The notes: generated by a model from the letters alone, not told the origin. A DNA stretch of 38,798 nt from Candidatus Saccharibacteria bacterium CPR2 (GCA_021404905.1 QWHN01000002.1:143582-182379); one strand, 5' to 3'; positions 6,322 to 37,933 are shown, numbered from the stretch's first letter. Numbers and translations are program-made.

Positions 6322-8014
6322 GCTGCCAACAAATATCGTCGATATAGGCAAGAGTGTTGGAGCCTTTTACAACTATTATTTGTAATTTTGCGCTTGTTAC
6401 CTGAGTGCTGGATGGAGTGTAACTAAACTCAACATTTTTTATGCCTTTGCCGACCGACGAGCCAATATATTTTCCTGATATCCATTGGCCATTAACATCA
6501 TATTCATCAACGTAAAATCCAATTGATGAATTATTGCGTAGCCTAGCCACATTCAAAAATGCAGAAATTTTATAAGTTTGAGCAGGGCTGACATTAACTT
6601 TTGGCGAGAATAAATGCACGTTACGGTCTTTGCGCGAAGTTAGTTTAATTGAGTTTTTAGGTTCACTGGGAGCGCCGTTATTATTGACGTCAAGCAATAT
6701 TTTTTGCGAAGCATCGGTTGACCAGCCATTACTTAAACCCTGCTCAAAATTACCATTCACAAGCAAATTCTGAGGCTCCGGATTGGGGTCGCCAGGACCT
6801 TTGGGACCAACACAATACAGTTGCACATTATCCAGAAGAAGTACATTGCTGCTCGAGGCAGTTAGTATGAATTGCAGACTAATGCTCGCAACATTCACGG
6901 AAGTCGGCACATAAACGTAGTTAGCGTTTTTTGCCAGCACGTTATCAACAAAGCTAATTGGCTTATACTGTCCGCTGATCCAGTTTCCATTTTGGTCGTA
7001 TTCGTCAATATACCAAGCAGCTTCGCTTGTAATCTGGGTATTGTCCAAATTCACGTAACTCTTTAGTACATATTGTTTTTGGTCCGATACATTTATTTTT
7101 TCTGAAAACAGGTGAACATTTTTCTCTGGCGTTGACACAATTTTGGCTGAACTTTGAGATTCAGGAACACTGCCGTTATTGTTTTGATCTATCGCTAAGT
7201 TTGGGTTGTCCGTCGTCCAGCCGCTAAGACCATTGGTAAATGAAGAGTTATTAACCATATTTACTGTATCTTTTATTAACCCGTCGCTAACGTTGACCAC
7301 GTCAAGACCCTGAGTTTTTACGTAAGAAGCAATTTGCCGCAAATCCTCAGTGCTATATTCATAATCATTGCTGTCCGGGCTTGGATTGTCGGCAATATTA
7401 TGAAACACCAGTACAAGCCAATAGTTATTGGTTTTAGCCTGGTCGATATATTGCTTAACCTGAGAAACGCTTACGCCAACCTGGACTTGCTGGACTTTAA
7501 TTAAATAATCGTTGTAAGGCCAGGTGTTGTAACCCGTATCATGAAACGGTCGATGAGAAGTGTAGTGACGCGCTATTGCTTCAATAACACGATTGTCATA
7601 ATCGCCATATGGAGTGGCAAAGGATTTTGGATTAAACCCTTTGGATTCCAGGATGCTTTTGCTGGTGGCAACTTCGTTCTCAATTTCTAGGTCACTAAGT
7701 TGGCTCATTAATGGGTGAGTAACGCTATGGGCGCCGATCTCCCAGCCATATTGGCTGGCAAGCTGGCTGGTTTGGCTCCAGGTTAAATACTCGCTTTGGC
7801 CAACAAATGAAGTTGTTATATATGCGGTTCCAGTATAGCCAAACTCTGAAAGTACCGGAGCAGCTTCAAGTAATGTACTCGAATATCCATCATCAAACGT
7901 AAAACTAACTTTTGGATAAGCTGGCTGAGCATCTGCACGGACAGAACTTGAAAGCAGAGCCCAGGTTAAAGCTGCTAATATTACTGAGAAAAATACTGTG
8001 GTTAATCTACGCAC
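6314..8014 (-). CDS. secreted polysaccharide deacetylase (CE4/NodB) with two CBM4/9-like domains
   Basis: Signal peptide (VRA|DA), TFDDG, HSVTH, TPYG and LVFH motifs; two ~150-aa internal repeats (N..F..GL..W.TD ... NVHLFS.K.NVS ... Y.DEYD.NG.WISG.Y) joined by a G/P linker. Confidence 0.88.
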   Translation of the reverse strand: MRRLTTVFFSVILAALTWALLSSSVRADAQPAYPKVSFTFDDGYSSTLLEAAPVLSEFGYTGTAYITTSFVGQSEYLTWSQTSQLASQYGWEIGAHSVTHPLMSQLSDLEIENEVATSKSILESKGFNPKSFATPYGDYDNRVIEAIARHYTSHRPFHDTGYNTWPYNDYLIKVQQVQVGVSVSQVKQYIDQAKTNNYWLVLVFHNIADNPSPDSNDYEYSTEDLRQIASYVKTQGLDVVNVSDGLIKDTVNMVNNSSFTNGLSGWTTDNPNLAIDQNNNGSVPESQSSAKIVSTPEKNVHLFSEKINVSDQKQYVLKSYVNLDNTQITSEAAWYIDEYDQNGNWISGQYKPISFVDNVLAKNANYVYVPTSVNVASISLQFILTASSSNVLLLDNVQLYCVGPKGPGDPNPEPQNLLVNGNFEQGLSNGWSTDASQKILLDVNNNGAPSEPKNSIKLTSRKDRNVHLFSPKVNVSPAQTYKISAFLNVARLRNNSSIGFYVDEYDVNGQWISGKYIGSSVGKGIKNVEFSYTPSSTQVTSAKLQIIVVKGSNTLAYIDDICWQPI

Positions 8015-8094
8015 ATACTAAATCCATTAATTCTGCGTATATTGTGCGTTATTTTTGCTAAAATGTAAAATTCTAGTGTTTTATTTAAAGCTTC

Positions 8095-8766
8095 TTATTC
8101 GCCTAATGCGCTGTAACAAGCCTGTTGTGCGCCGGGATCAGTAATTTGTTCACAGGTTTGTCGCTGTAACTCCATGTTGCTTTGAGCAGATTGCTGTAAC
8201 TGTTGTTGCTGAGCTGTAAGATCGGTAAATTCAACGTCAGCAGGTGGAGTAAAGAATGATTCATCGACACTCCATTTATCGCAATTAAACTCATAGCTCT
8301 GATCTGTATTTACCGGCTCGTTAGTTTGGGCTGAATCTCCAGTTTCTGCGGTTGTACTTTCTCCAGTCGCAGGAATTTTAAACTTGCTGCCTTGTTTTTC
8401 GCTATCTATCCATGTGTATGCGTAAGTGCCATCGTTTATCATGCTGCTTTTAATCTCACCGCTAGTGGCATCTTGAACCCTGAATTCGCCTCGCATTTTT
8501 GCTCCGGCAACATAAACTGTACCTGAAGATACGCTCCCAGTAGATTGATCGGTGTGCGTAAAACTACACTGCATATTTTCACCAAGCTTTGCCAGCTCAT
8601 CAAGCGAGGTATTAAGGCTTTTCTTTGTGCTTGCTACTTCCGTAGAACTGCTGCTTTCTTGAGTTGAACTATTGCTTGAATCCTTTTTTGAACCCAGAAC
8701 AAAATATCCGCCAACCCCAAGCAAAATTAAAACCGCAACAACTGCTAGCCAAATTTTTTTATTCAT
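8095..8766 (-). CDS. membrane-anchored extracytoplasmic hypothetical protein
   Basis: ATG 8766 after a GGGGG SD-like run; N-terminal TM, Ser-rich linker, beta-rich domain with four Cys and F.PP..V.F.D. Confidence 0.7.
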   Translation of the reverse strand: MNKKIWLAVVAVLILLGVGGYFVLGSKKDSSNSSTQESSSSTEVASTKKSLNTSLDELAKLGENMQCSFTHTDQSTGSVSSGTVYVAGAKMRGEFRVQDATSGEIKSSMINDGTYAYTWIDSEKQGSKFKIPATGESTTAETGDSAQTNEPVNTDQSYEFNCDKWSVDESFFTPPADVEFTDLTAQQQQLQQSAQSNMELQRQTCEQITDPGAQQACYSALGE

Positions 8767-10213: not shown

Positions 10214-11020
10214 ATGAGCAAGCCAAAAATTTCACTTGAGAATCACGATGAATTATATGAATATTACGCTAAGAAAAAGCTCAGCCCAACCATAGTAAGA
10301 ATTAGTCACTTCTTATTATCACAAGCTTTTAAGCCTAGAGTTCATTACATTGATGATTCTAAGGAAAAAATAAAAGAAACCTTCGCGCGAGGCGGACAAT
10401 TTATTATGACATCCAATCATCTAAGCGCCGCCGACCAATACATTTTGGGATCAATTGTAAGACGCGAGGAAGTTCTGCGCCCATTTATGGGCAACACTGT
10501 TATACCTGGCAAGGCGCCAGTATTTAAAATACCGGTATTGCGTTCATTCGTAGATAATCTCGGTGCTGTGCCAACATTTCGCACCAAAGAAGTTTTAAGC
10601 GAAGAAAATAGCCACTTGAACCCCGATGAAAGAGATAAAGCCCATAGCGCTTCTAGGCAAGCATTGCTTGATGTTTGCATTAAGCGCGTAACAAAAGATG
10701 GTATGAGTATGGCAATTTTTCCAGAAGGAACCAGAAACAGAGAAAATCCTGAAAACTTACTGCCGCTAAAAATTGGTGTTGGCATAGTCGCGTGTGAAGC
10801 TTCCACAGAAGTGGAAGATCTATCAATATTACCAATTGGAATGAGCTATAGAAGCTCTAAAGCATTAGACGCAAGAGATCCAATCGTGTGTATTGGCGAG
10901 CCAATCTTAGGCCCATTTAATGAAGTCGACCAAGTACTCGAGCTGGTTGATGAAAAATTACAAAAGTGTGTTGACGCCGCAAGATTTATAGTGAATCATG
11001 AAAATGTTTATGATTATTAG
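10214..11020 (+). CDS. lysophospholipid acyltransferase (PlsC family)
   Basis: NHLSAAD (NHX4D) and FPEGTRN motifs. Confidence 0.88.
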   Translation: MSKPKISLENHDELYEYYAKKKLSPTIVRISHFLLSQAFKPRVHYIDDSKEKIKETFARGGQFIMTSNHLSAADQYILGSIVRREEVLRPFMGNTVIPGKAPVFKIPVLRSFVDNLGAVPTFRTKEVLSEENSHLNPDERDKAHSASRQALLDVCIKRVTKDGMSMAIFPEGTRNRENPENLLPLKIGVGIVACEASTEVEDLSILPIGMSYRSSKALDARDPIVCIGEPILGPFNEVDQVLELVDEKLQKCVDAARFIVNHENVYDY

Positions 11021-25200: not shown

Positions 25201-25463
25201 ATGCCATAATAGCCAGAAACCAGCCAGAATTTCGAAATAAAAATATCGAGACTCAAATGATATATGCGCACGCCGAAACTGAGAAGCAGCTCATGCAAAA
25301 ATACAGAGTGACAGAGGAAGATATTAAGCGCTTAGAAAAACTTATAAATTCAGTGTGGAATAGAATTATGCATCTGAATTTTCCCGACACCTCAACATAT
25401 TCAAACGACTTAAAAGGCATACTTCAGTTTGAACAAGATCTAATTAGTAGAAACTTTGCCTAG
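22245..25463 (+). CDS. UvrD/REP-family helicase with C-terminal PD-(D/E)XK nuclease
   Basis: [48 protein letters not shown]; C-terminal G..DRID...IIDYKTG and Q...Y. Confidence 0.93.
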
Positions 25464-25470
25464 TTATACG

Positions 25471-25547
25471 TGGTCGGGGATGCGGGATTTGAACCCACGA
25501 CCTCCGCGTCCCGAACGCGGCGCGCTACCGAGCTGCGCTAATCCCCG
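25471..25547 (-). tRNA. tRNA-Pro (CGG)
   Basis: Reverse complement CGGGGAT...CCGCG-TT-CGG-GA-CGCGG...GGTTCAAATCC...ATCCCCG-A-CCA. Confidence 0.95.
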
Positions 25548-25606
25548 CGAACACACTCCGCATGTAATTATCAATTATCAGTTCCCAAATATCAAACACA
25601 TATATA

Positions 25607-25771
25607 AAATAGCAATTGGGAAATAGGAATTGGGAATTAGGAAATAGGAATTGGGAATTAGGAATTAGAAACTAGGAACTGGGAATTAGAAAATAGTGTT
25701 TTTAAAAAACTAATTCCTGGTTCCTATTTTCTAGTTTCTAATTTCTAATTGCCAATTGCTAGTTTCTAATT
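25607..25771. repeat. inverted heptamer-array element, copy 1
   Basis: 13 in-phase AA(T/A/C)T(A/G)G(G/A)-like units (25607-25697), core GTTTTTAAAAA, then 9 reverse-complement units (25709-25771). Confidence 0.93.
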
Positions 25772-26382
25772 TATTCCAAATTCGCAATGATCTCTTGGGC
25801 CATGATTTTATGGTGCTGTTCTATCTCCTCAGGCCCATCGTTAATACTTCCCTGAACAGTAAGCCAATACTTGCCATTATCAATTAACACATTAAGTTGG
25901 CCCAGCTGTGGATTCCAATAAGCTTTGTCGCCGACACCAGAAATTTGTTGCAACTTTGGTGGTTCTTCTTCCCCAAACTCGGCAGTTTCAAACGGTGCCT
26001 GCTCATAATTGTTTCTGTTCCACTCCTCTCCGGTAGAGTTCTTAGCCGTGTTTAGTTGTATGTTGCGTGATTCCAAAGAGTCTTCTCCAGCACCATACAG
26101 GCACGACGAAGTTATAAGGTTGTCACCTTCGGTTGAGTCATCGCTTGAGGGCGTATCTCCAAGTCTGGCATTTTCACCCAAATGCTTTTTGGCAATTTCT
26201 AGTGTAAATACGTCGCAAGCTGATTTATATTGACTGGCGCTGGATTGATTTGTCTCTTGCTTTTGGCTTGCATCAATAATTTTTTGAGTATTATCTTTCT
26301 GGAAAAATTGGCCATATGCCACATAACCCAGAAAACCCACAGCAATAATGCCGCCAATTATTAGAAAAATTTTTTTATTCAT
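25771..26382 (-). CDS. membrane-anchored extracytoplasmic protein (DUF3558-like)
   Basis: ATG 26382 after GAGGGG; N-terminal TM, SACDVFT, C.Y and GVGDKAYW motifs. Family assignment tentative. Confidence 0.6.
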   Translation of the reverse strand: MNKKIFLIIGGIIAVGFLGYVAYGQFFQKDNTQKIIDASQKQETNQSSASQYKSACDVFTLEIAKKHLGENARLGDTPSSDDSTEGDNLITSSCLYGAGEDSLESRNIQLNTAKNSTGEEWNRNNYEQAPFETAEFGEEEPPKLQQISGVGDKAYWNPQLGQLNVLIDNGKYWLTVQGSINDGPEEIEQHHKIMAQEIIANLE

Positions 26383-26504
26383 AAACACCCCTCATAATTA
26401 CGAATATAATTATAACAACTAAAAGTTGAACGGCAAAAACTTCACGTCCGTGGGTAATATTTCGCTTATGTTGTATACTAATAACCATAAGCAGACTAGA
26501 AGTA

Positions 26505-27359
26505 ATGAGCGAACAACTGGAAGATCCGGCAGAAGAACAAAACAAGGAACTTATAAAGCAAGTAAAAGACATGCCCGATTCTCCTAACAGGAGCCAGTTT
26601 AATAGTGTTGCTTTGCCGTCATCAAATGTAAACAAGAGATTTTTGATTACTCAAAAAATCAAAGTGTTTTTGTATGTAACCATTGCTTTGCTGGTTGTTG
26701 CTGTCATTACTGGCTCTGTTTTGATAATGAGACACGAGGACCCCGTCGCGCGTGGAGCGCTGGAGGCAGTCGGATCTAAAATAAATGCAAAAATATCATC
26801 AGTTGATGGCACAGTTGAGACAAGTACGGACGGGCAAAACTGGCAGGCCGCAAAAACTGATCAAGACGTGCAATCATCAACTTATATAAGAACTCTTGAG
26901 CAGAGTAGGGCAGAACTTAAACTAGAAGACAAGAGTTTACTGAGGCTCAACTACAACACTCAACTCAAAATAACTAATTTGAGCAGCACCAAGTTGAGAT
27001 TTGAAAATCTCGGCGGTGAAGTATGGGCAAGAGCAGCTCAATCCGGTCACCGCCAATTTGAAGTTGCACTTGAGAGCATTCGTTTCCTGAGCACCGAAGC
27101 CGCATTTATATCTGTAAATTCTAAAAATACTATTGGGGTGGAGGTTTATCAGGGCAAAGTTGATGTACCAGATCCATTTAACGAAACAGTTAATGAAGGC
27201 AAGGCCTTTTACCTGCTAAGTTCTAAAAATGAACAGCAAAAAGTTCTAGACATTAACCTGGATGAATCAAGAGCTAATGACTTTATAAAGTGGAACATTG
27301 AGAAGGATGCTAACAATTCTGACTTTCGGGATAAACAGGGGATTAGCGAAGCAATTTAG
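26505..27359 (+). CDS. FecR-domain membrane protein
   Basis: Single TM, then G.V......W, IRT...SRAEL.L.D.S..RL..NT.L, G.VW, V.V.QGKV. Confidence 0.75.
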   Translation: MSEQLEDPAEEQNKELIKQVKDMPDSPNRSQFNSVALPSSNVNKRFLITQKIKVFLYVTIALLVVAVITGSVLIMRHEDPVARGALEAVGSKINAKISSVDGTVETSTDGQNWQAAKTDQDVQSSTYIRTLEQSRAELKLEDKSLLRLNYNTQLKITNLSSTKLRFENLGGEVWARAAQSGHRQFEVALESIRFLSTEAAFISVNSKNTIGVEVYQGKVDVPDPFNETVNEGKAFYLLSSKNEQQKVLDINLDESRANDFIKWNIEKDANNSDFRDKQGISEAI

Positions 27360-27362
27360 ACC

Positions 27363-28301
27363 TTAAGCAACTGTCGCCATTTCGGTTTTCTCAGAAACAA
27401 TATAAACAGGCAAGTCACCCTTAGTTAGAGTAGCTGCAGTTGACAGGGTATAAACAAGCATAGAAAGTAAAGCTTTTTGTTTTTCGACATCATTATCAAA
27501 CGCCTGATGTGAAATATCTTCAAGCCTCCACATATCTACTGCGAATACTTGAGCATTGTTGTTTGTTATTTCTCTTACCCAACCCTGATTTACTGTCTTT
27601 CCGCGCACTGTATTGATGATAATCGCGACCTCTTTATGGGAGCCTTCAAGTTCCTTGACAATCTTGCCCTTACTTACAATTTCGTTCTTTACATCTTTAC
27701 CGCTATAATTTTCATTATTAGCGCCTTGGCTATAATTTCTAAAAGACCCTAATACATTTTTTACAATATCGTTGTCAACATCATCACCAAGTAGGGCTCT
27801 AAGAGAACCCACAATATGATCATGATATTTTCCAACATTTCTTATGATATCAGGCGCCTTATCTATTGCGCCGCAACCACAATTTTCACCATGAGCATGA
27901 TCGTCTGTGTGAGCGCCAAAATCAATACCACGCTCCATCAATAAACCGATTGAAGACTTAAAAACTTCGTTTAGCGATTCATCTTTATCATTAACTCTTC
28001 CCATACCAATTAAAGCGGCTCCCATCATTATTGCGCTTCCGCCAAAAACTTTTGCCCTATTTAAAGATCTCTTAAATTCTCCAAATCTGTTGAATACTTT
28101 TTCGGCAAATCGCCCATCACCGCAACCATCGTCGCTAGCTTCTTCATCAATATCAACTAAAACGCTGTCTGGCCGGGTCTCAACGGCATCTTTAACTGCG
28201 TCTCTTGCCTCTACGCCAACTTTTTTCGCGGAAATATCTCCTTCGCCAAAACCCAGTCCGTTTGGCGCGATTAACCGAATTGAGTATTCTTTTTGTTCCA
28301 T
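27363..28301 (-). CDS. cadmium/zeta-type carbonic anhydrase-like protein
   Basis: CGDGR, KVFGG, GAHTD, CGCGA (Cys-His-Cys metal ligands with Asp-Arg dyad). Start chosen at ATG 28301 after GGAGG. Confidence 0.6.
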   Translation of the reverse strand: MEQKEYSIRLIAPNGLGFGEGDISAKKVGVEARDAVKDAVETRPDSVLVDIDEEASDDGCGDGRFAEKVFNRFGEFKRSLNRAKVFGGSAIMMGAALIGMGRVNDKDESLNEVFKSSIGLLMERGIDFGAHTDDHAHGENCGCGAIDKAPDIIRNVGKYHDHIVGSLRALLGDDVDNDIVKNVLGSFRNYSQGANNENYSGKDVKNEIVSKGKIVKELEGSHKEVAIIINTVRGKTVNQGWVREITNNNAQVFAVDMWRLEDISHQAFDNDVEKQKALLSMLVYTLSTAATLTKGDLPVYIVSEKTEMATVA

Positions 28302-28451
28302 TTCGAAACCTCCCATTAATAGATCTGCGTCGTTACCTTTTTCCATCTTTTTCCTTTTTAACATTTATTAAACAAAGCCCTATCATAAACATAAATATAA
28401 ATAAAAACAACCTCACATTTGTGGTATTATTTCATAGAGGAGACACTATAT

Positions 28452-28814
28452 ATGCCACCACCTCACGATCATGGCGATATTGAAAGGCAAGTAGGCGCTA
28501 TTCCTCACTTTGAAGAATTACCGGAAGCAATACGGGAAAAGATCGCCCTCGCCGTGTTGAGAGAACTTGAAAAAAATAATCCCAATTTATATGAGGTGAT
28601 AAAAGGGAATATTGATGCGATTAATACTCAAATGCAAAATGAATTGCCAAGAGACGCCAATCAAAGACTAGTGGCGACAGATGACCAACTTCGTGGGATA
28701 ATAGCCAAAGCCGCCATTGCAGGAGCAGCACAAGTGTTGCACTCTGTAGGCAAGTCTCTCGCAGAGATCCATGCGCTTGAGTCTGAATATAATTTAGATT
28801 CGAAAGACGATTAG
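28452..28814 (+). CDS. hypothetical helical protein
   Basis: ATG 28452 after GAGGAG SD; no motif recognised. Confidence 0.6.
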   Translation: MPPPHDHGDIERQVGAIPHFEELPEAIREKIALAVLRELEKNNPNLYEVIKGNIDAINTQMQNELPRDANQRLVATDDQLRGIIAKAAIAGAAQVLHSVGKSLAEIHALESEYNLDSKDD

Positions 28815-28819
28815 TTTCT

Positions 28820-29242
28820 CTAGTGGCGGCGTTTTTTAATACTTGCTACTTTTAGTTTCGCATGGTGAATCTCGATTAGGTTTTGAGCCTTTTCAAAAGA
28901 AACTTGATCTTTTGCTTCTTTTTTCATTTTTTTTGCGAGTTTTAATGCTTCTTCAATTTCCTTGTGAACCAGCTCACCGGAATGGGTCGCTTCATCCGCG
29001 AGCAATCTGACTCTTCGTTTATTAACCTCGACCACACCGCCGTTTATAGCAAAGTGTTCCATTTTATTATCTGGATCCTGCTTTGAGTGGCGTACGCTCA
29101 CAATACCCGGAACTGTAGTGGCAACAAGTGGGGCGTGATTTTCAAATACTCCAATTTGCCCGTCCGCAGTAGGTATTATCACCTCATATACATCTTCGTC
29201 GAATTTAATCCCGCTCAGAGTTACGAGTTCAAAAGTTAGCAT
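28820..29242 (-). CDS. atpC: ATP synthase F1 epsilon subunit
   Basis: PT.DG.IGV..NHAPL, GG.VEV, LLAD.A; operon position. Confidence 0.95.
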   Translation of the reverse strand: MLTFELVTLSGIKFDEDVYEVIIPTADGQIGVFENHAPLVATTVPGIVSVRHSKQDPDNKMEHFAINGGVVEVNKRRVRLLADEATHSGELVHKEIEEALKLAKKMKKEAKDQVSFEKAQNLIEIHHAKLKVASIKKRRH

Positions 29243-29263
29243 TGTTTTAAGCCCCTGGTTTGA

Positions 29264-30779
<1,516 letters not shown>

Positions 30780-30789
30780 CTATAAAATT

Positions 30790-30851
30790 CTCAACTTCTA
30801 ATTGTCTTTTCTAACATCTATACTCCATACGTACTACTCCATACTTAATAC
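30790..30851. repeat. one-armed degenerate heptamer array (atpG-atpD)
   Basis: TCTAATT...TCTAACA TCTATAC TCCATAC GTACTAC TCCATAC TTAATAC; TCTATAC is the reverse complement of the GTATAGA variant at 37230. Confidence 0.65.
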
Positions 30852-31720
30852 TACGCGCCTACGGCGCTTGCGCCTCCAGTTATTTCCGCTAACTCCTGAG
30901 TAATGGCCGCTTGGCGAGCGCTGTTAAACTCCAGCGTTAAATCATCTATAAGCTCCGACGCGTTATCGGTCGCATTTTTCATCGCCAGCATGCGCATTGA
31001 GTGTTCTGACGCGCCGGCTTCTAAAAATGTTTGATGAAGCTGGGCTTCTATGAGCCGCGGAGTTACGTTGTCGAGTACGGCTTGAGGTGAAGGTTCGAAT
31101 ATGGCGTCTCCCAAATCTTTACGAAGCTCAGTTTCTTCAAAAGCAGCCGGTAGAATTCTTTGGACGATCGCTTCCTGTTTAATGCTCGAGTAAAAATGGG
31201 TATAAAGAACGTCCACGGCATCAATTTCTTTATTTACAAACATCTCAATAGTGTTCATGACAATGGGCTTAATGTCGTCAATACTAGGTACGTCTGGAAA
31301 ATCCTCATAAATTCCAATGTTTTTTATTCCAGCTAATTTACTGACGAATCGCGAACCTTTTTTGCCTATAACAATTACGAATTGACCAATTTCATTTGAT
31401 TTATCTTCATTTAAAAGATGGGTGAATTTCTTCAGCAAATTCGCGTTATACGCACCAGCCAAGCCCTTGTCGCTCGTAATTAAAATATAGAGCTTAGATT
31501 TAACGTTTCTTTTTTTATAAAGCGGGTGTTTCGATACATCAGTAAGAGTCTTGACGTTGGTTAAAATTTCCCTTGCGGTCGTGCTAAACGCGCGAGATTT
31601 TAGAGTTGCTTCCTGAGCTCGGCGCATTTTTGAGGCCGCTACCATTTCCATAGCTTTGGTAATCTGCTTGGTGCTGCGCACACTACGGATTCTTCTTTTT
31701 ATTAGTTGGGTGCTAGCCAC
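30851..31720 (-). CDS. atpG: ATP synthase F1 gamma subunit
   Basis: QITKAMEMVAASK, SDKGLAG.YN, SEH..RM.AM..ATDNA, RQA.ITQE. Start is GTG 31720; the ORF-track extension is translated repeat. Confidence 0.98.
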   Translation of the reverse strand: MASTQLIKRRIRSVRSTKQITKAMEMVAASKMRRAQEATLKSRAFSTTAREILTNVKTLTDVSKHPLYKKRNVKSKLYILITSDKGLAGAYNANLLKKFTHLLNEDKSNEIGQFVIVIGKKGSRFVSKLAGIKNIGIYEDFPDVPSIDDIKPIVMNTIEMFVNKEIDAVDVLYTHFYSSIKQEAIVQRILPAAFEETELRKDLGDAIFEPSPQAVLDNVTPRLIEAQLHQTFLEAGASEHSMRMLAMKNATDNASELIDDLTLEFNSARQAAITQELAEITGGASAVGA

Positions 31721-31739
31721 AACGAAACTCCGTTTCGTT
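31721..31739 (-). promoter_or_regulatory. hairpin over the atpG ribosome-binding site
   Basis: mRNA AACGAAAC-GGA-GUUUCGUU-GUG: perfect 8-bp stem containing GGAG directly before the start codon. Confidence 0.65.
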
Positions 31740-31742
31740 AGG

Positions 31743-31807
31743 AAATAGGAAATAGGAAATAGGAATTGGTGTTTTTTCAACTAATTGCCAATTTCTGGTT
31801 TCCAGAT
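31743..31807. repeat. inverted heptamer-array element, copy 3 (atpA-atpG)
   Basis: AAATAGG x3, AATTGGT, core GTTTTTTCA, then ACTAATT GCCAATT TCTGGTT TCCAGAT. Confidence 0.88.
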
Positions 31808-31819
31808 TCTGCATAAGCA

Positions 31820-33364
31820 TTATGTTTTCTCCTCAGTGCGTGTATATCCCTTCGCAACCTGATTTGCTACTTTTCTGACCAGTTCCTGGATTTTTTCGCT
31901 AGGCTTATCGCCTCGATTGAGCTCTTTCATCAAATCTTTGTGCTCGGTTTTTAGGACCTGGAGAAGTTCGTTTTGCATTTTCTTAACGTTCTCCAGGGGA
32001 ACTTCATCAAACGCGCCTTCTGAAGCAGCAGTTAAAACCGCGACCTGCGACCAGATGCTGTACGGGCTGTATTGAGGCTGCTTAAGGATTTCCGTAAGTC
32101 TTTGCCCGCGTTCGATGCGAGCCTTAGTTTCTGCGTCTAGGTCCGTTGCGAATTGCGCGAAAGCTGCGAGTTCCCGGAATTGAGCCAGATCTAGACGTAA
32201 ACTACCAGCAACATTTTTTATGGCTTTAGTCTGAGCCGAACCGCCGACGCGTGATACTGATAATCCAACGCTGATAGCCGGCCGGATCCCTTGATAGAAC
32301 AGATCTGTTTCAAGGAAAATTTGGCCATCGGTGATAGAAATAACATTCGTCGGAATATATGCGGAAACGTCTCCGGCCTGAGTCTCAATAATCGGCAGAG
32401 CCGTGAGAGATCCACCGCCTTTTTCATCAGACATTTTCGCAGCTCGTTCAAGCAAGCGAGAATGCAGATAAAATACATCCCCCGGATAGGCTTCGCGTCC
32501 GGGCGGACGTCGAAGCAGCAATGACATTTGTCGGTAGGCAACAGCGTGCTTAGATAAATCGTCGTGAATAATCAAGGCGTGCTCGCCGTTATCTCGAAAA
32601 TATTCGCCCATGGCCGTGCCGGAGTATGGGGCAAGATATTGCAGCGAGGCAGGGTCGGAAGCTGAAGTCGCGACAATAATGGTTTGATCCATAACACCTT
32701 CTTGCTTTAATTTTTCAACCAGCCGCGCGATCTTTGACAGTTTTTGGCCAACAGCTACATAAATGTTAATAACACCGGTTTTTGATTTATGCTGATTGAT
32801 CATGGTGTCAATCGCGATGGCAGTTTTTCCGGTTTGACGATCGCCAATTATTAATTCTCTTTGCCCTCGGCCAATTGGAACCATAGTATCAATTGCCATA
32901 ATTCCAGTCATCAACGGCTCATGAACCGACTTTCTGTCTAAAACCCCAGGCGCTGGTTTTTCTATTAAGCCCGTATGTTTTGTTTTTATCGGACCTTTGT
33001 TGTCAAGCGGCTGTCCAAGTGGATCAACCACGCGTCCAACTAGCTCGGGGCCAACAGGGATTTCCAGAACTTTGCCGGTTAAGCGCGCTTTTGCACCGGC
33101 TTTGACGTTAACGTCGCTGCCGAGCAAGACGGCGCCAATCTCGTCTTCCATCAAGTTAAGCGCGAAAGCAGTAACTTTTGAGCCGTCTTCAGCGTCAACT
33201 TCAATCATTTCGTTATAACCACACTCGCTCAGTCCGTAAATCCAGGCAATTCCGTCTCCAACGCGAGTAACAATGCCAACTTTTTTAACTTCGACGGACT
33301 GTTTTAAACCAGAAATTGCATCTTTGAGCTCTTTAGAAAGTTCTTTAATTGAAATATCGGTCAT
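31820..33364 (-). CDS. atpA: ATP synthase F1 alpha subunit
   Basis: [35 protein letters not shown]. Confidence 0.99.
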
Positions 33365-33807
33365 TTTATTCCTCCTGTTTCTTGATATTCATAATTAATC
33401 TGGTCCTGTAACTGAGAAAACCTAAAGCTTTTCAAGGCATTGTTTAGCGAGATGTCTATCTCCAGTTCGGGCGAGCGAACTGTTACTCCACCCAATAAGT
33501 TTTCATCAATTTCCTCATGTAAAATTACGTTTTTAGTGCCGGTTTCTTTAATGATCAGCTCTTTGATCTGTCTTTTTAAACTGACCGATAGAGGAAAGCG
33601 CGATTTTACGCTTGCCTGAATGCTGCCAGTTATTTTCTCAAGCTCCAAGGCAATATCGTTTATAAATACGTCTAATTTGTCCGTTAATTTTTCTTCAACG
33701 ATGTAGGCCGCAAGCATCTTGATGATTTCTTGCCTTTCGCTAGAGTTTGAGGAATTTAGCTTTATGGCAATTTCTTTTGCCAAACTTTTTCGTGATAACA
33801 ACTTCAT
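33361..33807 (-). CDS. atpH: ATP synthase delta subunit (short form)
   Basis: C-terminal D..LLGG......ID.S motif; lies between atpF and atpA with 4-nt overlaps. Confidence 0.85.
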
Positions 33808-34331
33808 AATCTGCCCTCAATGGCGCTTTTGATTAATTTTTCGTCTTTTTTTTCGTCGAGTTTTTCATGAATTAACTGTTCAGTTGCCTGGACCACTAAA
33901 GATCTGACTTCATTTTTCAACTCTAACTTTGCTTTTTCGACATCATTTTCTATACGTTTCTTGGCATCGCCAATCATGGTTTCAGTCTTTGATGTTGCGG
34001 CGTCTTCAGCCTGCTTTACAATAGCACCGGCTTCTTCATGGGCCCTTGCGAGTACTGAATCTGCTTCTTTTCGAGCTGATTGTAAAATTTTCTCCTGTTC
34101 TTGAACGGCTTGCTCGCTGGCTTTAGCAGCTTTCTCGGCATTGGCAAGCCCCTCGTTGATCGTATCTTCCCGATCTTTTAAGCTTTTTACGATTTTATCC
34201 AGGGCAAATTTTCTAATCAGTACGAAAAGAATAACGAACGTGCCCGCCTGAAAAAGAATCGCTTTTGGATCAATACCAAGAGCAGATACACCTTTCTCTT
34301 CTGCAGCAAATATTAACAGTGACGTAAACAC
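33804..34331 (-). CDS. atpF: ATP synthase Fo b subunit
   Basis: N-terminal TM then long coiled coil; operon position. Confidence 0.95.
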   Translation of the reverse strand: MFTSLLIFAAEEKGVSALGIDPKAILFQAGTFVILFVLIRKFALDKIVKSLKDREDTINEGLANAEKAAKASEQAVQEQEKILQSARKEADSVLARAHEEAGAIVKQAEDAATSKTETMIGDAKKRIENDVEKAKLELKNEVRSLVVQATEQLIHEKLDEKKDEKLIKSAIEGRL

Positions 34332-34350
34332 GTTCGCTCCTTATCTTTTT

Positions 34351-34626
34351 TTAAATGAGGAATATTGCGCCGATTGTCAGTAGCGCTGTTACCTCAACCA
34401 TAGCTGCGATAATAATTATTTGTCCCGCGGCCTTGCCAGCTTCAGGGTTTCTACCTAAAGCTTTCATGTAGTTACTGCCGATCATGCCAAGCGAAAACGC
34501 GGCTAACGCCATGGCGACAGCAACCATGATTGCTTTGCCAAATTCAGGCTGCCACGGAGCAGCTTGAGTTGCGGCTTCCGCAGCTTGTGCGCCTTCAGCA
34601 GCAAATGTTGTTAGTGTTGAAATCAT
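34351..34626 (-). CDS. atpE: ATP synthase Fo c subunit
   Basis: Two TM helices, RNPE loop, conserved Glu (MVEVT). Confidence 0.95.
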   Translation of the reverse strand: MISTLTTFAAEGAQAAEAATQAAPWQPEFGKAIMVAVAMALAAFSLGMIGSNYMKALGRNPEAGKAAGQIIIIAAMVEVTALLTIGAIFLI

Positions 34627-34669
34627 ATTTTTTCTCCCTTTCTAATTTTGGATACTTTTTATTGATTTC

Positions 34670-35515
34670 CTACCCATTGGCGAGCTCCTCGACCATTAGC
34701 CCGGTTTGTGATTGTGAGTAGCTAAATTGTTCTTCAGTTTGGTGCTCGTGTTCGGAATGCGCAGTTGCCAACGCCAAGTAAGTAGCTGAGAGCACCGTAA
34801 ATACATAAGCTTGAATAAACGCGACCAAAATCTCAAAAACCATGATGGGCAAAAGAGTAAACGTTGCCGCATTAGCTCCGATAAACGCAAAAATTGCAAT
34901 TAAAATATCTCCCATGGCAGTGTTGAAAAACAATCGCAGCGATAAACTTATAACACGTGTCAGCTCGCCAAATACCTCCAGCAACCCTATGAAGAAATTC
35001 AGCGGGTTCAGTGGTTTGTCGCTAAAATAATGTTTAAGGTGGCCTTTTAACCCAGATTCTTTGATTGAAAAATATTGAACCAGAATAATAGCGCTAAGCG
35101 CTAAGGCCAGGGTTGCATTTAAATCGGCAGTAAATGGCCTGAAGAGGGGAGATCCGTTATGAGTCACACCCTCACCAACAAGCGGGAATAAACCAGCCAA
35201 GTAACTAATGACTATAAAAACAAAATACGCTCCAAAAACTGGGGCGTATTTGTAGGCTTTGCGGCGACTGCCCATAATTTCAGCTAGCAGATTAATGACA
35301 AATTCCATTCCCATTTCAAACAATCTGGTGATACCTCTTGCTGGTTTAATGCCAGCACTTTTACCAGCTATAACGCCAAGAATAATAATAGCAACAGCAA
35401 TAATAACACCGTAAAGCATGGAATTTGTAATATTTAAAGAACCGATGGTAAAAACAGGCTCAGCCTTAAGGCTAATATGAGGACCATCCGTTGACGCTAA
35501 AACTAACCAACTCAT
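34670..35515 (-). CDS. atpB: ATP synthase Fo a subunit
   Basis: RPFTADLN, SLSLRLFFN, IQAYVF..L...Y. Confidence 0.97.
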   Translation of the reverse strand: MSWLVLASTDGPHISLKAEPVFTIGSLNITNSMLYGVIIAVAIIILGVIAGKSAGIKPARGITRLFEMGMEFVINLLAEIMGSRRKAYKYAPVFGAYFVFIVISYLAGLFPLVGEGVTHNGSPLFRPFTADLNATLALALSAIILVQYFSIKESGLKGHLKHYFSDKPLNPLNFFIGLLEVFGELTRVISLSLRLFFNTAMGDILIAIFAFIGANAATFTLLPIMVFEILVAFIQAYVFTVLSATYLALATAHSEHEHQTEEQFSYSQSQTGLMVEELANG

Positions 35516-35805
35516 TTCTTCGTCCTGTTCTTATTAAAACTTTCTGGAAAATATTGCTGGGAATATCGATAGACAATTGTCAATGACACAAATGACGAGA
35601 AAATCATACTCAAAAACAGTATTTTGCCATTTCCGGACAGCGTTTTATCAAGAAAGCTAGCTGGTAACCCAAGCAAAATAAATGATAAAGCCACTCGCCA
35701 GGAAGCTTCCGCAAGATGCCTTTCCATACCACGACTTAACAACACACCCGAATGGTGCGGCTCATTATTCTTTGGAGTCGATTTTGATTTTCCCTTACTC
35801 TTCAT
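35512..35805 (-). CDS. AtpZ/AtpI-like membrane protein
   Basis: Two TM helices with FLD.. motif; first gene of the atp operon, overlaps atpB start by 4 nt. Confidence 0.6.
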   Translation of the reverse strand: MKSKGKSKSTPKNNEPHHSGVLLSRGMERHLAEASWRVALSFILLGLPASFLDKTLSGNGKILFLSMIFSSFVSLTIVYRYSQQYFPESFNKNRTKK

Positions 35806-35882
35806 CTACCAAGCAGAATGTTACCAGTAGTGACATATACATGCAAGGGTTATTTATTTTTGTTGGCAATAGGTAGTGATAT

Positions 35883-35927
35883 TTGACAATACCAACCAGA
35901 CTGCTATAATTTAAGTGTTTACTTAAA
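35883..35927 (+). promoter_or_regulatory. consensus promoter plus ArsR-type operator
   Basis: TTGACA-N16-TATAAT with extended TGn, followed by inverted repeat TTTAAGT-GTTT-ACTTAAA (35910-35927). Confidence 0.75.
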
Positions 35928-35936
35928 CTTTATCAG

Positions 35937-36242
35937 ATGCCTCTGAAATTAAATCAGACTTCAAAATTCATCGTCCAAGCTTTTAATGCCCTTGGCGATG
36001 AGACACGTTTCAAAATTCTTCAGGTTTTATCCAGTTCCAATGAAATATGTGTTTCTCAGATTGCGAAGTCACTGGGGATCACTACAGCCGGCACGTCTCA
36101 ACATTTAAAAATACTGGAACAAGCCGGACTAATTGAACGACAAAGAATGGGGCAAAGAACTTGTTATATCATCAAACCATCGCGCAAAATACACCAGGAA
36201 ATAATTAATGTAACTTTAAAGGTAAAGGATTCTAATGAGTAA
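35937..36242 (+). CDS. ArsR/SmtB-family regulator
   Basis: F.ALGDETR..IL, EICV..IA, SQHLKIL..AGLI, R.G....Y. Confidence 0.93.
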   Translation: MPLKLNQTSKFIVQAFNALGDETRFKILQVLSSSNEICVSQIAKSLGITTAGTSQHLKILEQAGLIERQRMGQRTCYIIKPSRKIHQEIINVTLKVKDSNE

Positions 36243-36474
36243 TGTAATTGTTTACACCAGCCCAACATGCGGTTTTTGTCATATGGCAAAAGAATATTTA
36301 AAATCAAAGGGTATCGGTTTTACCGAAAAAGACGTCACGACTGATAAAACCGCGTACCAAGAAATTCTAGACAAATCGGGCCAACTTGGTGTTCCCGTAC
36401 TTGATATTGGCGGGAAAATAGTGGTCGGATTTGATAAATTTCGGATTGATTCTTTGCTTAACGATAACGATTAA
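36235..36474 (+). CDS. glutaredoxin-like protein (NrdH/YruB type)
   Basis: YT.P.CGFC, SGQ.GVPV, VGFD. Confidence 0.92.
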   Translation: MSNVIVYTSPTCGFCHMAKEYLKSKGIGFTEKDVTTDKTAYQEILDKSGQLGVPVLDIGGKIVVGFDKFRIDSLLNDND

Positions 36475-36518
36475 ATTTTTTAACTATTCGCTTTTGCTTT
36501 AGTGTTATAATTTCAGGC

Positions 36519-36737
36519 ATGATAAGCGAGTTGATAATTATAGGTGATATTTTTGAGGTCATCGGTACTGTTTTAATTGCTTATATGGCCTTGGCGGTCC
36601 ATGAGCAAGTCAGACATGAACAAAAAATCGACCGCAAGGTTTTTGGTGTAATACGCCAGGAAAAGGTATTGGCGTATACGGGTATGATACTTATCGTAGG
36701 CGGCTTCTTGCTGCGCGTCGCTGGCGGAGCATACTAG
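36519..36737 (+). CDS. small two-TM membrane protein
   Basis: Two hydrophobic segments; TGnTATAAT 7 nt upstream of ATG. Confidence 0.65.
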   Translation: MISELIIIGDIFEVIGTVLIAYMALAVHEQVRHEQKIDRKVFGVIRQEKVLAYTGMILIVGGFLLRVAGGAY

Positions 36738-36822
36738 GCGCATGCGTTAATTTTCAGTTCTCAATTTTCAAATCCATAGGTTTGGTTTGGATGGAATTGC
36801 ATCTATAGATTAAACTTAGCTT

Positions 36823-37179
36823 ATGTTAAGCGCGCGCAACCGTTTTTTTGGCCAAAAGGGCATAAAGAGAGTTCTCAAATATGGAAAAATTTCTAGAGGA
36901 CGTTTTTTGTCTATAAAGACGATCGAAAACAATCGTCGAAGTGGATCCCGAGTGGCAGTTGTGGTCAGCAAAAAAGTGTCTAAAAAAGCCGTTGTCAGAA
37001 ACAGAATTAGACGGCGGATTTATGAAATTTTTCGAAAGAACTGGGATAAAATTGAGCCGAATAAAGACATCGTTGTTTTGGTGTACGATGAAAAAACCGC
37101 GATTCTACCGCACGTAGAGCTCGAAACATCCATTCTACAATTAGCAGAAAAAGCCAAGCTACTGACGAATAGAAATTAG
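36823..37179 (+). CDS. rnpA: ribonuclease P protein component
   Basis: VSKKV.KKAVVRNRIRRR (RNR motif). Confidence 0.95.
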   Translation: MLSARNRFFGQKGIKRVLKYGKISRGRFLSIKTIENNRRSGSRVAVVVSKKVSKKAVVRNRIRRRIYEIFRKNWDKIEPNKDIVVLVYDEKTAILPHVELETSILQLAEKAKLLTNRN

Positions 37180-37346
37180 GAGATAGGAATTGGGAATTGG
37201 GAATTGGGAATTGGGAATTGGGAAATAGAGTATAGAGTATAGAAATTAGAAAACAGCAATTGGGAAATAGAAAATAGTATATTTTTAAAAACTAATTCCT
37301 ATTTTCTAATTGCTAGTTGCCAATTGCTATTTCCTAACACCTATAC
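37167..37346. repeat. inverted heptamer-array element, copy 4 (rnpA-cobO)
   Basis: 16 in-phase units (AATTGGG x5 in tandem, GTATAGA x2, others) at 37167-37278, core ATATTTTTAAAA, 8 reverse units at 37291-37346; the rnpA stop lies within a unit. Confidence 0.93.
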
Positions 37347-37360
37347 GTTATACTAACCTT

Positions 37361-37933
37361 ATGGGAGTTTTTGACGATTATAAACAAAAAGACAGCGTGG
37401 TGGTCGTTTACACGGGTGAGGGCAAAGGCAAAACCAGCGCAAGCCTTGGATTAATGGCCCGGGCACTGGGCAATGGATGGCGTGTGGCTTATGTGCAATT
37501 TATAAAACACTGGGAAGTAGGAGAACACAAGTTTTTGCGCGATATTAGTGATATTTATAAAAATAAATTAGTTTTTTATAAAGGTGGCGCCGGGTTCTAT
37601 AAAGCGGGCAGTTTAAGTGCGAAAAATATTTCAGACAAAACCCATAGAGATCTTGCCAAAAAAACTTACCAGCGCGCGCTTAAATATGCGTCTTCCGGAA
37701 AATTTGATTTGTTAGTTTGCGATGAAATTAATAATGCCATCCATGATGGTTTGCTAGAGATGGCTCTTTTGGAACATTTAATTAATTCTCGTCATCAAAA
37801 AACCAGTCTTTGTTTAACAGGTCGTAACTTCCCCGAAAAACTAATTGATCTTACTGATATTGCTACCAATATGACCAAAGTCAAACACCATTTTGACGAT
37901 AAATATTTGGCAAACAAAGGCATAGACTATTGA
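37361..37933 (+). CDS. cobO: cob(I)alamin adenosyltransferase (CobO/BtuR family)
   Basis: YTGEGKGKT, QFIK, DEI, LTGR, GIDY end. Start revised to ATG 37361. Confidence 0.88.
   Translation: MGVFDDYKQKDSVVVVYTGEGKGKTSASLGLMARALGNGWRVAYVQFIKHWEVGEHKFLRDISDIYKNKLVFYKGGAGFYKAGSLSAKNISDKTHRDLAKKTYQRALKYASSGKFDLLVCDEINNAIHDGLLEMALLEHLINSRHQKTSLCLTGRNFPEKLIDLTDIATNMTKVKHHFDDKYLANKGIDY

Follow-up and report, generated by a model that had tools for sequence, protein, structure and literature searches.

A dispersed family of heptamer-armed repeats in the intergenic spacers of a Saccharibacteria genome

In the genome of Candidatus Saccharibacteria bacterium CPR2, tandem arrays of 7-nt units lie at gene boundaries, in some cases as two arms of which the second consists of reverse-complement units. 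Several of them are located in a stretch of 38,798 nucleotides (QWHN01000002.1:143582-182379, hereafter the window), three being inside the ATP synthase operon. Do such heptamer arrays arise separately in each spacer, or are they copies of one another and, if so, copies of what? The original prediction, made from the window sequence, proposed four two-armed copies, a one-armed copy and two traces, and read them either as non-autonomous copies or empty sites of a mobile system or as a protein-binding DNA or RNA structure. We find that they are members of one genome-wide family of non-coding dispersed repeats of about 60-200 nt, which have a master sequence and were spread by copying. The window corresponds to positions 143582-182379 of contig C8 in an 829,375-bp genome (9 contigs, 40% GC, 98.9% complete), and its AtpD protein finds its nearest matches in metagenome-assembled genomes labelled Saccharimonas (86%) and Saccharibacteria (82%).

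The window arrays belong to a genome-wide family

When scanned by lag identity (at least 20/28 positions), the 829-kb genome yields 100 period-7 arrays, vs. 0-7 for each of the periods 5, 6 and 8-13, while a shuffled genome yields none at a stricter cut-off. The 100 arrays fall into 69 loci. Assigned by consensus unit with at most two mismatches, 64 arrays belong to class A (unit G[GAC]AA[ATC]T[AG]), 15 to class B (AGTATRG), 11 to class D (AAACTGA), six to class C (AGAATCT) and four to class E (CATTTAG).

The evidence for copying comes from the element centres. Eighteen genomic copies of the core TAGTATATTTTTAAAAACTA match the pattern TAGT[AG]T[AG]?TTTTTAAAAA?ACTA, and a looser search (at most three errors) retrieves 25 matches from the genome vs. 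four from the shuffled genome. The core is asymmetric, TATA adjoining TTTTTAAAAA on one side only, and each palindromic element therefore has an orientation. On one side of the core, the adjoining arm units are nearly constant in most copies (TAGAAAT TAGGAAA CAGCAAT TAGGAAA TAGAAAA). Unit by unit and moving outward, pairwise identity among core-aligned copies is 0.98, 0.87, 0.83, 0.81 and 0.67 on that side, and 0.86, 0.79, 0.68, 0.57 and 0.56 on the other; conservation peaks at the element centre and falls outward. In addition, strings like ACTATTTTCTATTTCCTAATTGCTGTTTCCTAA are repeated at unrelated loci, and in many copies class-B arms lie outside the class-A arms, so that the element starts with TAGTAT.. 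and finishes with ..ATACTA. The common core and the near-identical order of units show that these elements were dispersed as copies from a master and did not arise by slippage in place. The genome-wide relatedness of the cores, the genome-wide excess of period 7 and the departure from ordinary slippage microsatellites all agree with the original prediction.

The full element is built of outer AGTATRG-type arms, inner G[GAC]AA[ATC]T[AG]-type arms and an asymmetric 20-nt AT-rich core. Its second half is the inverse of the first, which allows either strand to adopt a long imperfect hairpin. Hairpins of 18 pairs or more are found at 36 of the 69 loci, the remainder being one-armed or weak. Watson-Crick complementarity from arm to arm amounts to 0.60-0.64 in registers 0, +7, -7 and -14, to 0.51 at +14, and to 0.17-0.40 off phase. 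A test for arms which mirror each other unit by unit was negative, as registers 0, +7, -7 and -14 pair equally well; pairing is therefore a property of the unit family, and no single register is maintained. Once dispersed, arms would change by whole 7-nt units gained or lost, and one such change was observed among strains.

At two loci and, in part, at a third (G000:C1:~70765-70800, C9:~75590-75640 and C5:~289248-289270), class-C (AGATTCY) arrays are adjoined by another non-repetitive segment that these loci share (CTTTATGAACTTGATAACTTTT..), which suggests a second core type, with composite or nested elements.

Within the window, all the arrays originally proposed are present, both on reading the sequence and as period-7/14/21/28 rows of Tandem Repeats Finder (25602-25772, 29269-29386, 30820-30852, 31739-31765 and 37168-37337, plus a weak row at 25566-25595). 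The 7-nt phase is unbroken within every arm, and the unit numbers agree with our re-reading (13+9, about 8+6, 4+4 and, for the region of copy 4, 16+8). The arrays consist of contiguous 7-mers without spacers and are not CRISPR, as had been stated. Likewise, copies 1 and 4 do share a core, to which that of copy 3 is related; the cores of copies 1 and 3 have diverged, and copy 2 has a different centre. Other readings had to be modified (Table 1). Copy 4, proposed as a single element at 37167-37346, is composite: the family element is confined to 37229-37354, and the upstream part is a one-sided expanded array, in which 37186-37224 forms 5.6 GGAATTG units with 100% matches (Tandem Repeats Finder). 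The one-armed copy is real, and is better described as a right half-element, in which units of both the inner and the outer type occur. Copy 1 does not lie directly beside a helicase gene, its neighbours being an open reading frame (ORF) and a tRNA-Pro gene. Finally, the long imperfect hairpins attributed to all two-armed copies are strong for copies 1 and 4 and only moderate for copy 2, and do not reach significance for copy 3 as sense RNA.

Table 1. Heptamer arrays of the window (window positions) and PF05635 genes of the genome (contig positions).
Feature	Position	Strand	Composition	Site	Paired arms	RNA fold
Weak one-sided array	25566..25595	.	AATTATC x4.3; Tandem Repeats Finder score 32, 69% matches	between copy 1 and tRNA-Pro
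Copy 1	25603..25775	.	two-armed, 13+9 class-A units; core variant TAGTGTTTTTAAAAAACTA at 25694-25712	between 3' end of ORF 25771-26388(-) and tRNA-Pro 25471-25547(-)	25635-25702 / 25704-25771, 68 nt, 81% complementary	-72.3 kcal/mol, z -10.8
Copy 2	29264..29387	.	~8+6 class-A units; different centre with small TAGTAT..ATACTA palindrome	atpD/atpC spacer	29279-29309 / 29356-29386, 74%	sense strand, -36.2 kcal/mol, z -2.85 (moderate)
Half element	30790..30856	.	only the right arm: class A' followed by class B' (TATACTC CATACGT ...), end ..ATACTA	atpG/atpD spacer		no significant hairpin, z -2.03
Copy 3	31739..31807	.	short, 4+4 units; degenerate core GTGTTTTTTCAACTAAT	atpA/atpG spacer		sense RNA, -14.7 kcal/mol, z -1.05 (not significant)
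Trace	36748..36770	.	~3 units AATTTTC AGTTCTC AATTTTC; by eye, under Tandem Repeats Finder threshold	10 nt past stop of ORF 36519-36737
One-sided class-A array	37167..37228	+	outside the family element proper	overlaps final codons and stop of rnpA (37177-37179 TAG)
Copy 4	37229..37354	+	full element, in order: class B; class A x5; core TAGTATATTTTTAAAAACTA at 37275-37294 in + orientation; class A'; class B' ending ..TATACTA	between rnpA and cobO, 8 nt before cobO ATG (37363)	37229-37282 / 37301-37354, 54 nt, 76%	region 37155-37370, -66.8 kcal/mol, z -7.4
PF05635 gene	C5:193373-193687		arms class A	between dnaN and recF
PF05635 gene	C5:281560-281871		arms class C
PF05635 gene	C5:297473-297763		arms class D

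Array units supply the stop codons of rnpA and atpD, as had been claimed, and likewise those of atpG and of ORF 25771-26388. The final unit of copy 2 contains the atpD stop (29382-29384); the ..ACTA end of the half element reads on the minus strand as TAG, the atpG stop (30851-30853); and the right end of copy 1 is the source of the stop codon of ORF 25771-26388(-). When searched against Rfam, the window arrays gave only sub-threshold matches (plant microRNA precursors and one Wolbachia small RNA), which arise because the hairpins are long and AT-rich.

As for the neighbouring genes, atpBEFHAGDC form a single operon on the minus strand. The rnpA gene (36823-37179; Pfam Ribonuclease_P, 2e-17) lies between a 72-aa membrane-like ORF and cobO. 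A perfect sigma-70 consensus (TTGACA, 16 nt, TATAAT, with TG) is found at 35883-35910, upstream of an arsR-glutaredoxin pair and directed away from the atp operon.

Intergenic placement, strains and alternative explanations

The elements are confined to intergenic spacers and show no strand or orientation preference. By ORF calls, which are crude, 61 of the 69 loci fall outside ORFs, though ORFs occupy about 91% of the genome (binomial p 2e-54). These 61 loci are distributed over 40 co-directional, 13 convergent and 8 divergent junctions (background 608/120/117); the use of divergent junctions is unlike a terminator, which would avoid them. At co-directional junctions, the core is oriented with the genes in six cases and against them in five. 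Across the 40 co-directional loci, the sense RNA is the more stable in 18 and the antisense RNA in 22 (p 0.73), and of the 19 strongest hairpins, 15 are more stable as antisense RNA (p 0.045). A consensus scan showed no enrichment of sigma-70-like promoter signals in the arrays, and none of the 10 intrinsic terminator-like sites found (13.0 expected) lies in an array. On contig C5, cores on one side of dnaN are oriented 6 vs. 2 with respect to replication, too few for use. Taken together, the tests of junction, orientation, strand fold and signals are more readily explained by tolerated insertions than by a regulatory device that works in one direction. One property does bear on the adjoining genes: the 5' arm is purine-rich and carries TAG in all three frames, on either strand, so that genes entering an element, whichever the side, end within a few codons. 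All frames are closed on one or both strands by 82 of the 100 consensus units, vs. 62% of random heptamers.

Sixteen DNA sequencing runs, from bioreactor and sludge metagenomes, contain at least 0.85 of the sampled words of the organism. We compared the window sites, over 25300-37500, with contigs of three of these from three studies (X11, X13 and X16) and of an RNA run (X17). Single contigs span 27852-33983 (X13, X16) or 27852-37213 (X11), with 43-44 substitutions and 3 gapped letters, and bridge copies 2 and 3 and the half element without indels in all three strains. Copy 1 is also present in 3/3 strains, and X11 lacks exactly 7 nt at 25724, which shows that whole-unit slippage occurs. The bridging contigs of X11 and X13 end at 37213, inside the perfect run of the copy 4 region, and no X16 piece was listed that far. 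Summed contig depth over copy 4 is 14-18x that of its flanks, consistent with about 18 copies in the genome. An opposite-strand joint between 25652 and 37280, with 22-35 nt on its short side, was found in three DNA runs; its interpretation as an inversion was rejected because the X11 contig is collinear over 25300-37213.

Divergence among the strains is high at 25938-27852, with 63 substitutions in 1.4 kb (26137-27554) vs. 43 in the next 9.3 kb, and the blocks 25938-26137 and 27554-27852 are of the same length but diverged in the other strains. This region covers an ORF of 205 aa of unknown function, a FecR-domain gene and a cadmium-carbonic-anhydrase-repeat gene.

More distant comparisons place the window elements in this lineage. 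The 40 relatives compared are all from the same order and from other families, and a metagenome AtpD scan gave 80% protein identity at best. In the relative L097 (AtpD 80-82%), the atp spacers measure about 12-60 nt and contain no inverted repeat. L001 has a 229-nt atpD/atpC spacer which reads by eye as a small ORF, with no heptamer hairpin, and L002 and L004 carry small ORFs without Pfam family at atp junctions. As the atp junctions of close relatives are without these arrays, the window elements are lineage-specific additions. Two distant Patescibacteria atp loci, L005 and L008, have heptamer hairpins of their own at atp junctions, built from other units.

Several details of these loci deserve mention in their own right. 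The small ORFs at atpA/atpG, atpG/atpD and atpD/atpC (L001:4696-4914; L002:5708-6001, 7344-7616; L004:3990-4553, 5291-5982, 7381-8104) have overlapping stop/start codons in some cases; the Pfam scan covered those of L002 and L004, that of L001 being judged by eye. Extra material seems to collect at atp junctions in this lineage. The hairpins of the distant loci (L005:5819-5957; L008:7939-8050, 10551-10600, 1242-1313) have units AAATGCA/TTTTGCA, AAGTTCA and AAAATTG, one lies inside an apparent coding sequence, and some of the records are labelled Gammaproteobacteria.

Could the elements nevertheless be under selection as RNA devices, i.e., hairpins which process, stabilise or translationally insulate segments of polycistronic mRNA, for example to set atpA/atpG/atpD/atpC dosage? 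The presence of three elements at consecutive atp junctions and of one between rnpA and cobO would suit such devices, as would the very strong folds of copies 1 and 4, the unchanged sites in three strains, the stop codons supplied by array units and the excess of frame-closing units. We nonetheless consider this explanation unlikely: core orientation is balanced, sense folds are no better than antisense folds and are the less stable in most strong hairpins, copies 2 and 3 are weak as sense RNA, 8 of the 61 elements sit at divergent junctions, and the nearest relatives lack elements at the same junctions. The protein-binding or RNA-structural role offered by the original prediction likewise draws no support from the orientation, strand or junction-type tests.

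The elements could also act at the DNA level, as binding sites for a nucleoid protein or a pentamer of the intervening-sequence protein described below, as recombination sites, or as preferred breakpoints or targets of insertion sequences (ISs). It is the AT-rich centre, not the ends, that is most conserved; three units make 7 x 3 = 21 bp, or two helical turns, and period-21 rows are frequent. In addition, one heptamer element is interrupted by an IS30-like gene (HTH_38 and a weak match to rve; L206, G000:C5:289150-290400), which has terminal inverted repeats of its own (..AAACGCAACC). However, no binding protein was identified, and the sole opposite-strand joint between copies 1 and 4 is the short-sided one reported above, on a contig collinear over 25300-37213. 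We therefore regard such DNA-level roles as improbable.

The original prediction held that no transposase is present. This holds for the window; elsewhere, the genome carries two RAYT-like (REP-associated tyrosine transposase; REP, repetitive extragenic palindromic) Y1 transposase genes, the IS30-like gene just mentioned, a second IS30-like gene (C5:106-1017), and an IS5/IS1182-like gene which occupies the small contig C4. No match was found in the genome (98.9% complete) to RVT_1 reverse transcriptase, IS630-type DDE_3 or TnpB-type families. The RAYT-like paralogues, of about 220 aa (L094, G000:C5:384292-387522; L095, G000:C7:4969-8205), could in principle mobilise REP-type elements, as both match PF01797 above cut-off (41.1 and 35.3 bits), their translations contain the HxH motif and a conserved Tyr region, and enzymes of this class act on single-stranded DNA hairpins. 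That they mobilise the heptamer elements is nevertheless very improbable, as the repeats flanking the genes are GC-rich palindromes, a different one for each gene (TGCAAGGAGCCTCCTTGCA or CCAAGGACTGTCCTTGG), and not heptamer arrays, these palindromes have only six and seven genomic matches (at most three substitutions), and both proteins fall below the NCBIfam cut-off for REP_Tyr_transpos. Equally hard to sustain is the idea that slippage microsatellites arose independently in each spacer, inverted pairs being accidents of a heptamer mutation bias: the whole-unit deletion, the perfect 5.6-unit run, the equal pairing of arms in any 7-nt register and the many one-armed loci would fit, but it is largely refuted by 18 copies whose asymmetric, non-repetitive cores are identical and whose adjoining unit variants follow one order, and the recurrent composite architecture of outer and inner arms and the multi-copy depth in independent assemblies also contradict it.

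Intervening-sequence protein genes between heptamer arms

If the elements are dispersed copies, what is their source? The genome contains three genes of PF05635, the family of 23S rRNA intervening sequence (IVS) proteins (IVPs), which are Avd-like four-helix bundles, and each of them lies between inverted heptamer arms. The arm classes concerned (A, C and D) are also present as ORF-less arrays elsewhere in the genome, class A being that of the window copies. Across the order, PF05635 matches occur in 22 of 61 genomes, and 15 of 28 IVP loci sampled outside the present genome have flanking 7-periodic inverted arms, with a different unit at each (inverted score exceeding the direct control by 6 or more; arms of 15 nt or longer; lag-7 identity of 0.6 or higher and greater than at the other lags). 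The gene-filled versions anticipated by the original prediction thus exist, both in this genome and in its relatives. Samples of 40 kb at a distance from IVP genes gave 5, 3, 0, 0, 0, 0, 1, 2, 0 and 0 period-7 arrays in 10 IVP-positive genomes (total 11), all in genomes with at least four PF05635 matches, while 10 IVP-negative genomes (40 kb each) gave one array, of low complexity (without G032, one in nine genomes).

The class-A PF05635 gene (L092:1459-1860; G000:C5:193331-193732) has no in-frame ATG, GTG or TTG upstream of the Pfam match. Its frame opens just past a stop, and its first standard start would cost the first 41 residues; translation may begin at a rare codon, or the gene may be in decay.

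Additional information comes from the protein of this class-A cassette, which matches PDB 2gsc, i.e., XCC0516 of Xanthomonas campestris (E 6.7e-16). According to the supplement of Rehm et al. 2015 (PMC4692102), repeat #15 of the GGGAATC heptamers of that species overlaps the start codon of XCC0516. This is a single case, about 242 of 4170 X. campestris genes being repeat-associated, and is only suggestive of a tie between heptamers and PF05635.

On balance, we think it probable that the window features are ORF-less, selfish hairpin elements comparable to IVSs or to MITEs (miniature inverted-repeat transposable elements), with a presumed past of mobility and, where transcribed, putative cleavage by RNase III. 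Most likely, they represent the ORF-less form of a heptamer-armed hairpin cassette which carries PF05635; ORF-less copies may derive from PF05635 cassettes or may have spread by the same route. They appear to behave as tolerated insertions, selfish or near-neutral, at gene boundaries, and would persist by ending incoming translation while being otherwise harmless. Where the stronger stems are co-transcribed, e.g., in the atp operon, they would be double-stranded RNA substrates for RNase III, as in rRNA IVSs, and polycistronic RNA would be cut at those junctions. A gene for RNase III is present in the genome.

Several observations weigh against this interpretation. Stable folding (z <= -3, 20 shuffles each) is seen at only 21 of the 69 loci, many of which are one-armed. 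Concerning mobility, one of the options of the original prediction, the three copies whose outer ends can both be defined show no evident target-site duplication, and no insertion/absence polymorphism was seen at copies 1, 2 and 3 and the half element among three strains diverged by about 0.5% (copy 4 not being bridged). Regarding the tie to IVPs, the association between IVP genes and arrays has a small basis (20 related genomes, 40 kb each), and the ORF-less arrays sampled in other IVP-positive genomes use units unlike the IVP arms of the same genome. In the present genome, both the 20-nt core and outer class-B arms are missing from the class-A IVP cassette, the ends of its loop being only loosely core-like in an ungapped comparison, and the other two IVP cassettes are built from units of other classes. 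Furthermore, PF05635 proteins are not known to have catalytic activity. Finally, contigs of the RNA run X17 have a depth of 0-13 and bridge no array; one ends at 31775, in copy 3, but contigs cannot show RNA ends and these data are too sparse to bear out the RNase III step.

Relation to known heptamer repeats and mobile hairpins

The closest known counterparts are the GGGAATC repeats of X. campestris and X. axonopodis. As described by Rehm et al. (PMC4692102), these are also tandem heptamers, with a unit near-identical to GGGAATT/GGAATTG here. They occupy 70-75 sites per genome as convergent inverted pairs capable of forming stem-loops, and, like the elements studied here, the pairs are mostly intergenic, between aligned ORFs, often over stop codons, and not associated with IS elements. 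They differ in being interpreted as G-quadruplex formers with a preference for four units, as are Nostoc GGGGA(C/T)T arrays (interpreted likewise in PMC4692102), and in their host, a gammaproteobacterium with a 65% GC genome; that paper describes no common central core, master-copy unit order or IVP link (PMC4692102). In the present genome, GGG occurs in only some units, as in the perfect run at 37186-37224, most units having GGAA or GAAA.

A second comparison concerns the TAACTGA repeats of Beggiatoaceae, Cyanobacteria and Bacteroidetes. According to MacGregor 2015 (PMC4679880), these are intergenic heptamers which, like ours, have stops in all frames in one orientation, a property that restricts their overlap with genes to gene ends. 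Our genome itself has 11 arrays of the similar AAACTGA-type unit. In contrast to our elements, the TAACTGA repeats comprise 169 direct arrays and one indirect, point toward start codons and are not described as a hairpin family with a common core; nor does the paper mention intervening sequences, four helix or S23 (PMC4679880).

The 23S rRNA IVS of Coxiella burnetii has a 28-bp terminal stem cut by RNase III and an S23p ORF; in Warrier et al. 2016 (PMC4990558), it is called selfish, its mobility mechanism being unknown. In elements of both kinds, complementary ends pair as a stem, whose loop may or may not contain a PF05635 ORF, as seen here in the stems and in the three armed PF05635 genes. 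They differ in location, the window copies lying between protein and tRNA genes instead of in helix 25 or 45 of 23S rRNA, and in their stems, which here are tandem-heptamer, much longer and less perfect, with RNase III cleavage only predicted.

As in MITEs, our elements are short, multi-copy and non-coding, with inverted ends (18 core-bearing copies, 69 array loci). Unlike those of MITEs, the ends do not match an autonomous IS, as they differ from the IS30-like terminal repeats and from the RAYT palindromes, the two types compared, and no presence/absence polymorphism was seen at copies 1, 2 and 3 and the half element in three strains. Nor does the repeat flank a RAYT gene in inverted orientation, as expected of REPs or bacterial interspersed mosaic elements (BIMEs), the GC-rich palindromes being found there instead. 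Correia elements of Neisseria, enterobacterial repetitive intergenic consensus sequences/intergenic repeat units (ERIC/IRU), REP/BIME and MITEs are multi-copy hairpins of 100-200 nt, intergenic and co-transcribed, some of them RNase III substrates; in these families, the ends are usually the most conserved part, and target duplications are defined. Here, by contrast, the centre is most conserved and the arms consist of tandem heptamers; no target duplication was evident at the three copies with definable outer ends. Short tandemly repeated repetitive (STRR) heptamers, to which the original prediction likened the arrays, have defined STRR1-3 units in heterocystous cyanobacteria; the present units differ from these, and the host is Saccharibacteria-like. 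Our search of the open-access literature found no paper joining Patescibacteria or Saccharibacteria with heptamer repeats or hairpin families, nor PF05635 with heptamer arrays.

A broader and much more tentative possibility is that the heptamer-armed hairpins are the non-autonomous form of a widespread, undescribed mobile cassette, whose autonomous form would carry the PF05635 gene. The ORF-bearing 23S IVS would then be one case of it, the GGGAATC, STRR, TAACTGA and Patescibacteria arrays might be its arms or footprints, and the four-helix protein might act on DNA or RNA of 7-nt periodicity.

An excess of heptamer tandem repeats in bacterial genomes has long been noted without being explained, and the 23S rRNA IVS with its four-helix-bundle ORF is an old puzzle, with no known way of spreading. 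The present genome shows that heptamer arrays can form the arms of a genuinely dispersed element that goes back to a master sequence, and that arms of the same kind bracket its IVS-protein genes. A minimal genome tolerates about 69 such loci, three of them inside its only ATP synthase operon. In practical terms, these repeats break short-read assemblies of these uncultured bacteria, as illustrated by the contigs which end at 37213. A possible link between the IVS-protein family and a mobile system of hairpins can now be put to a direct test.

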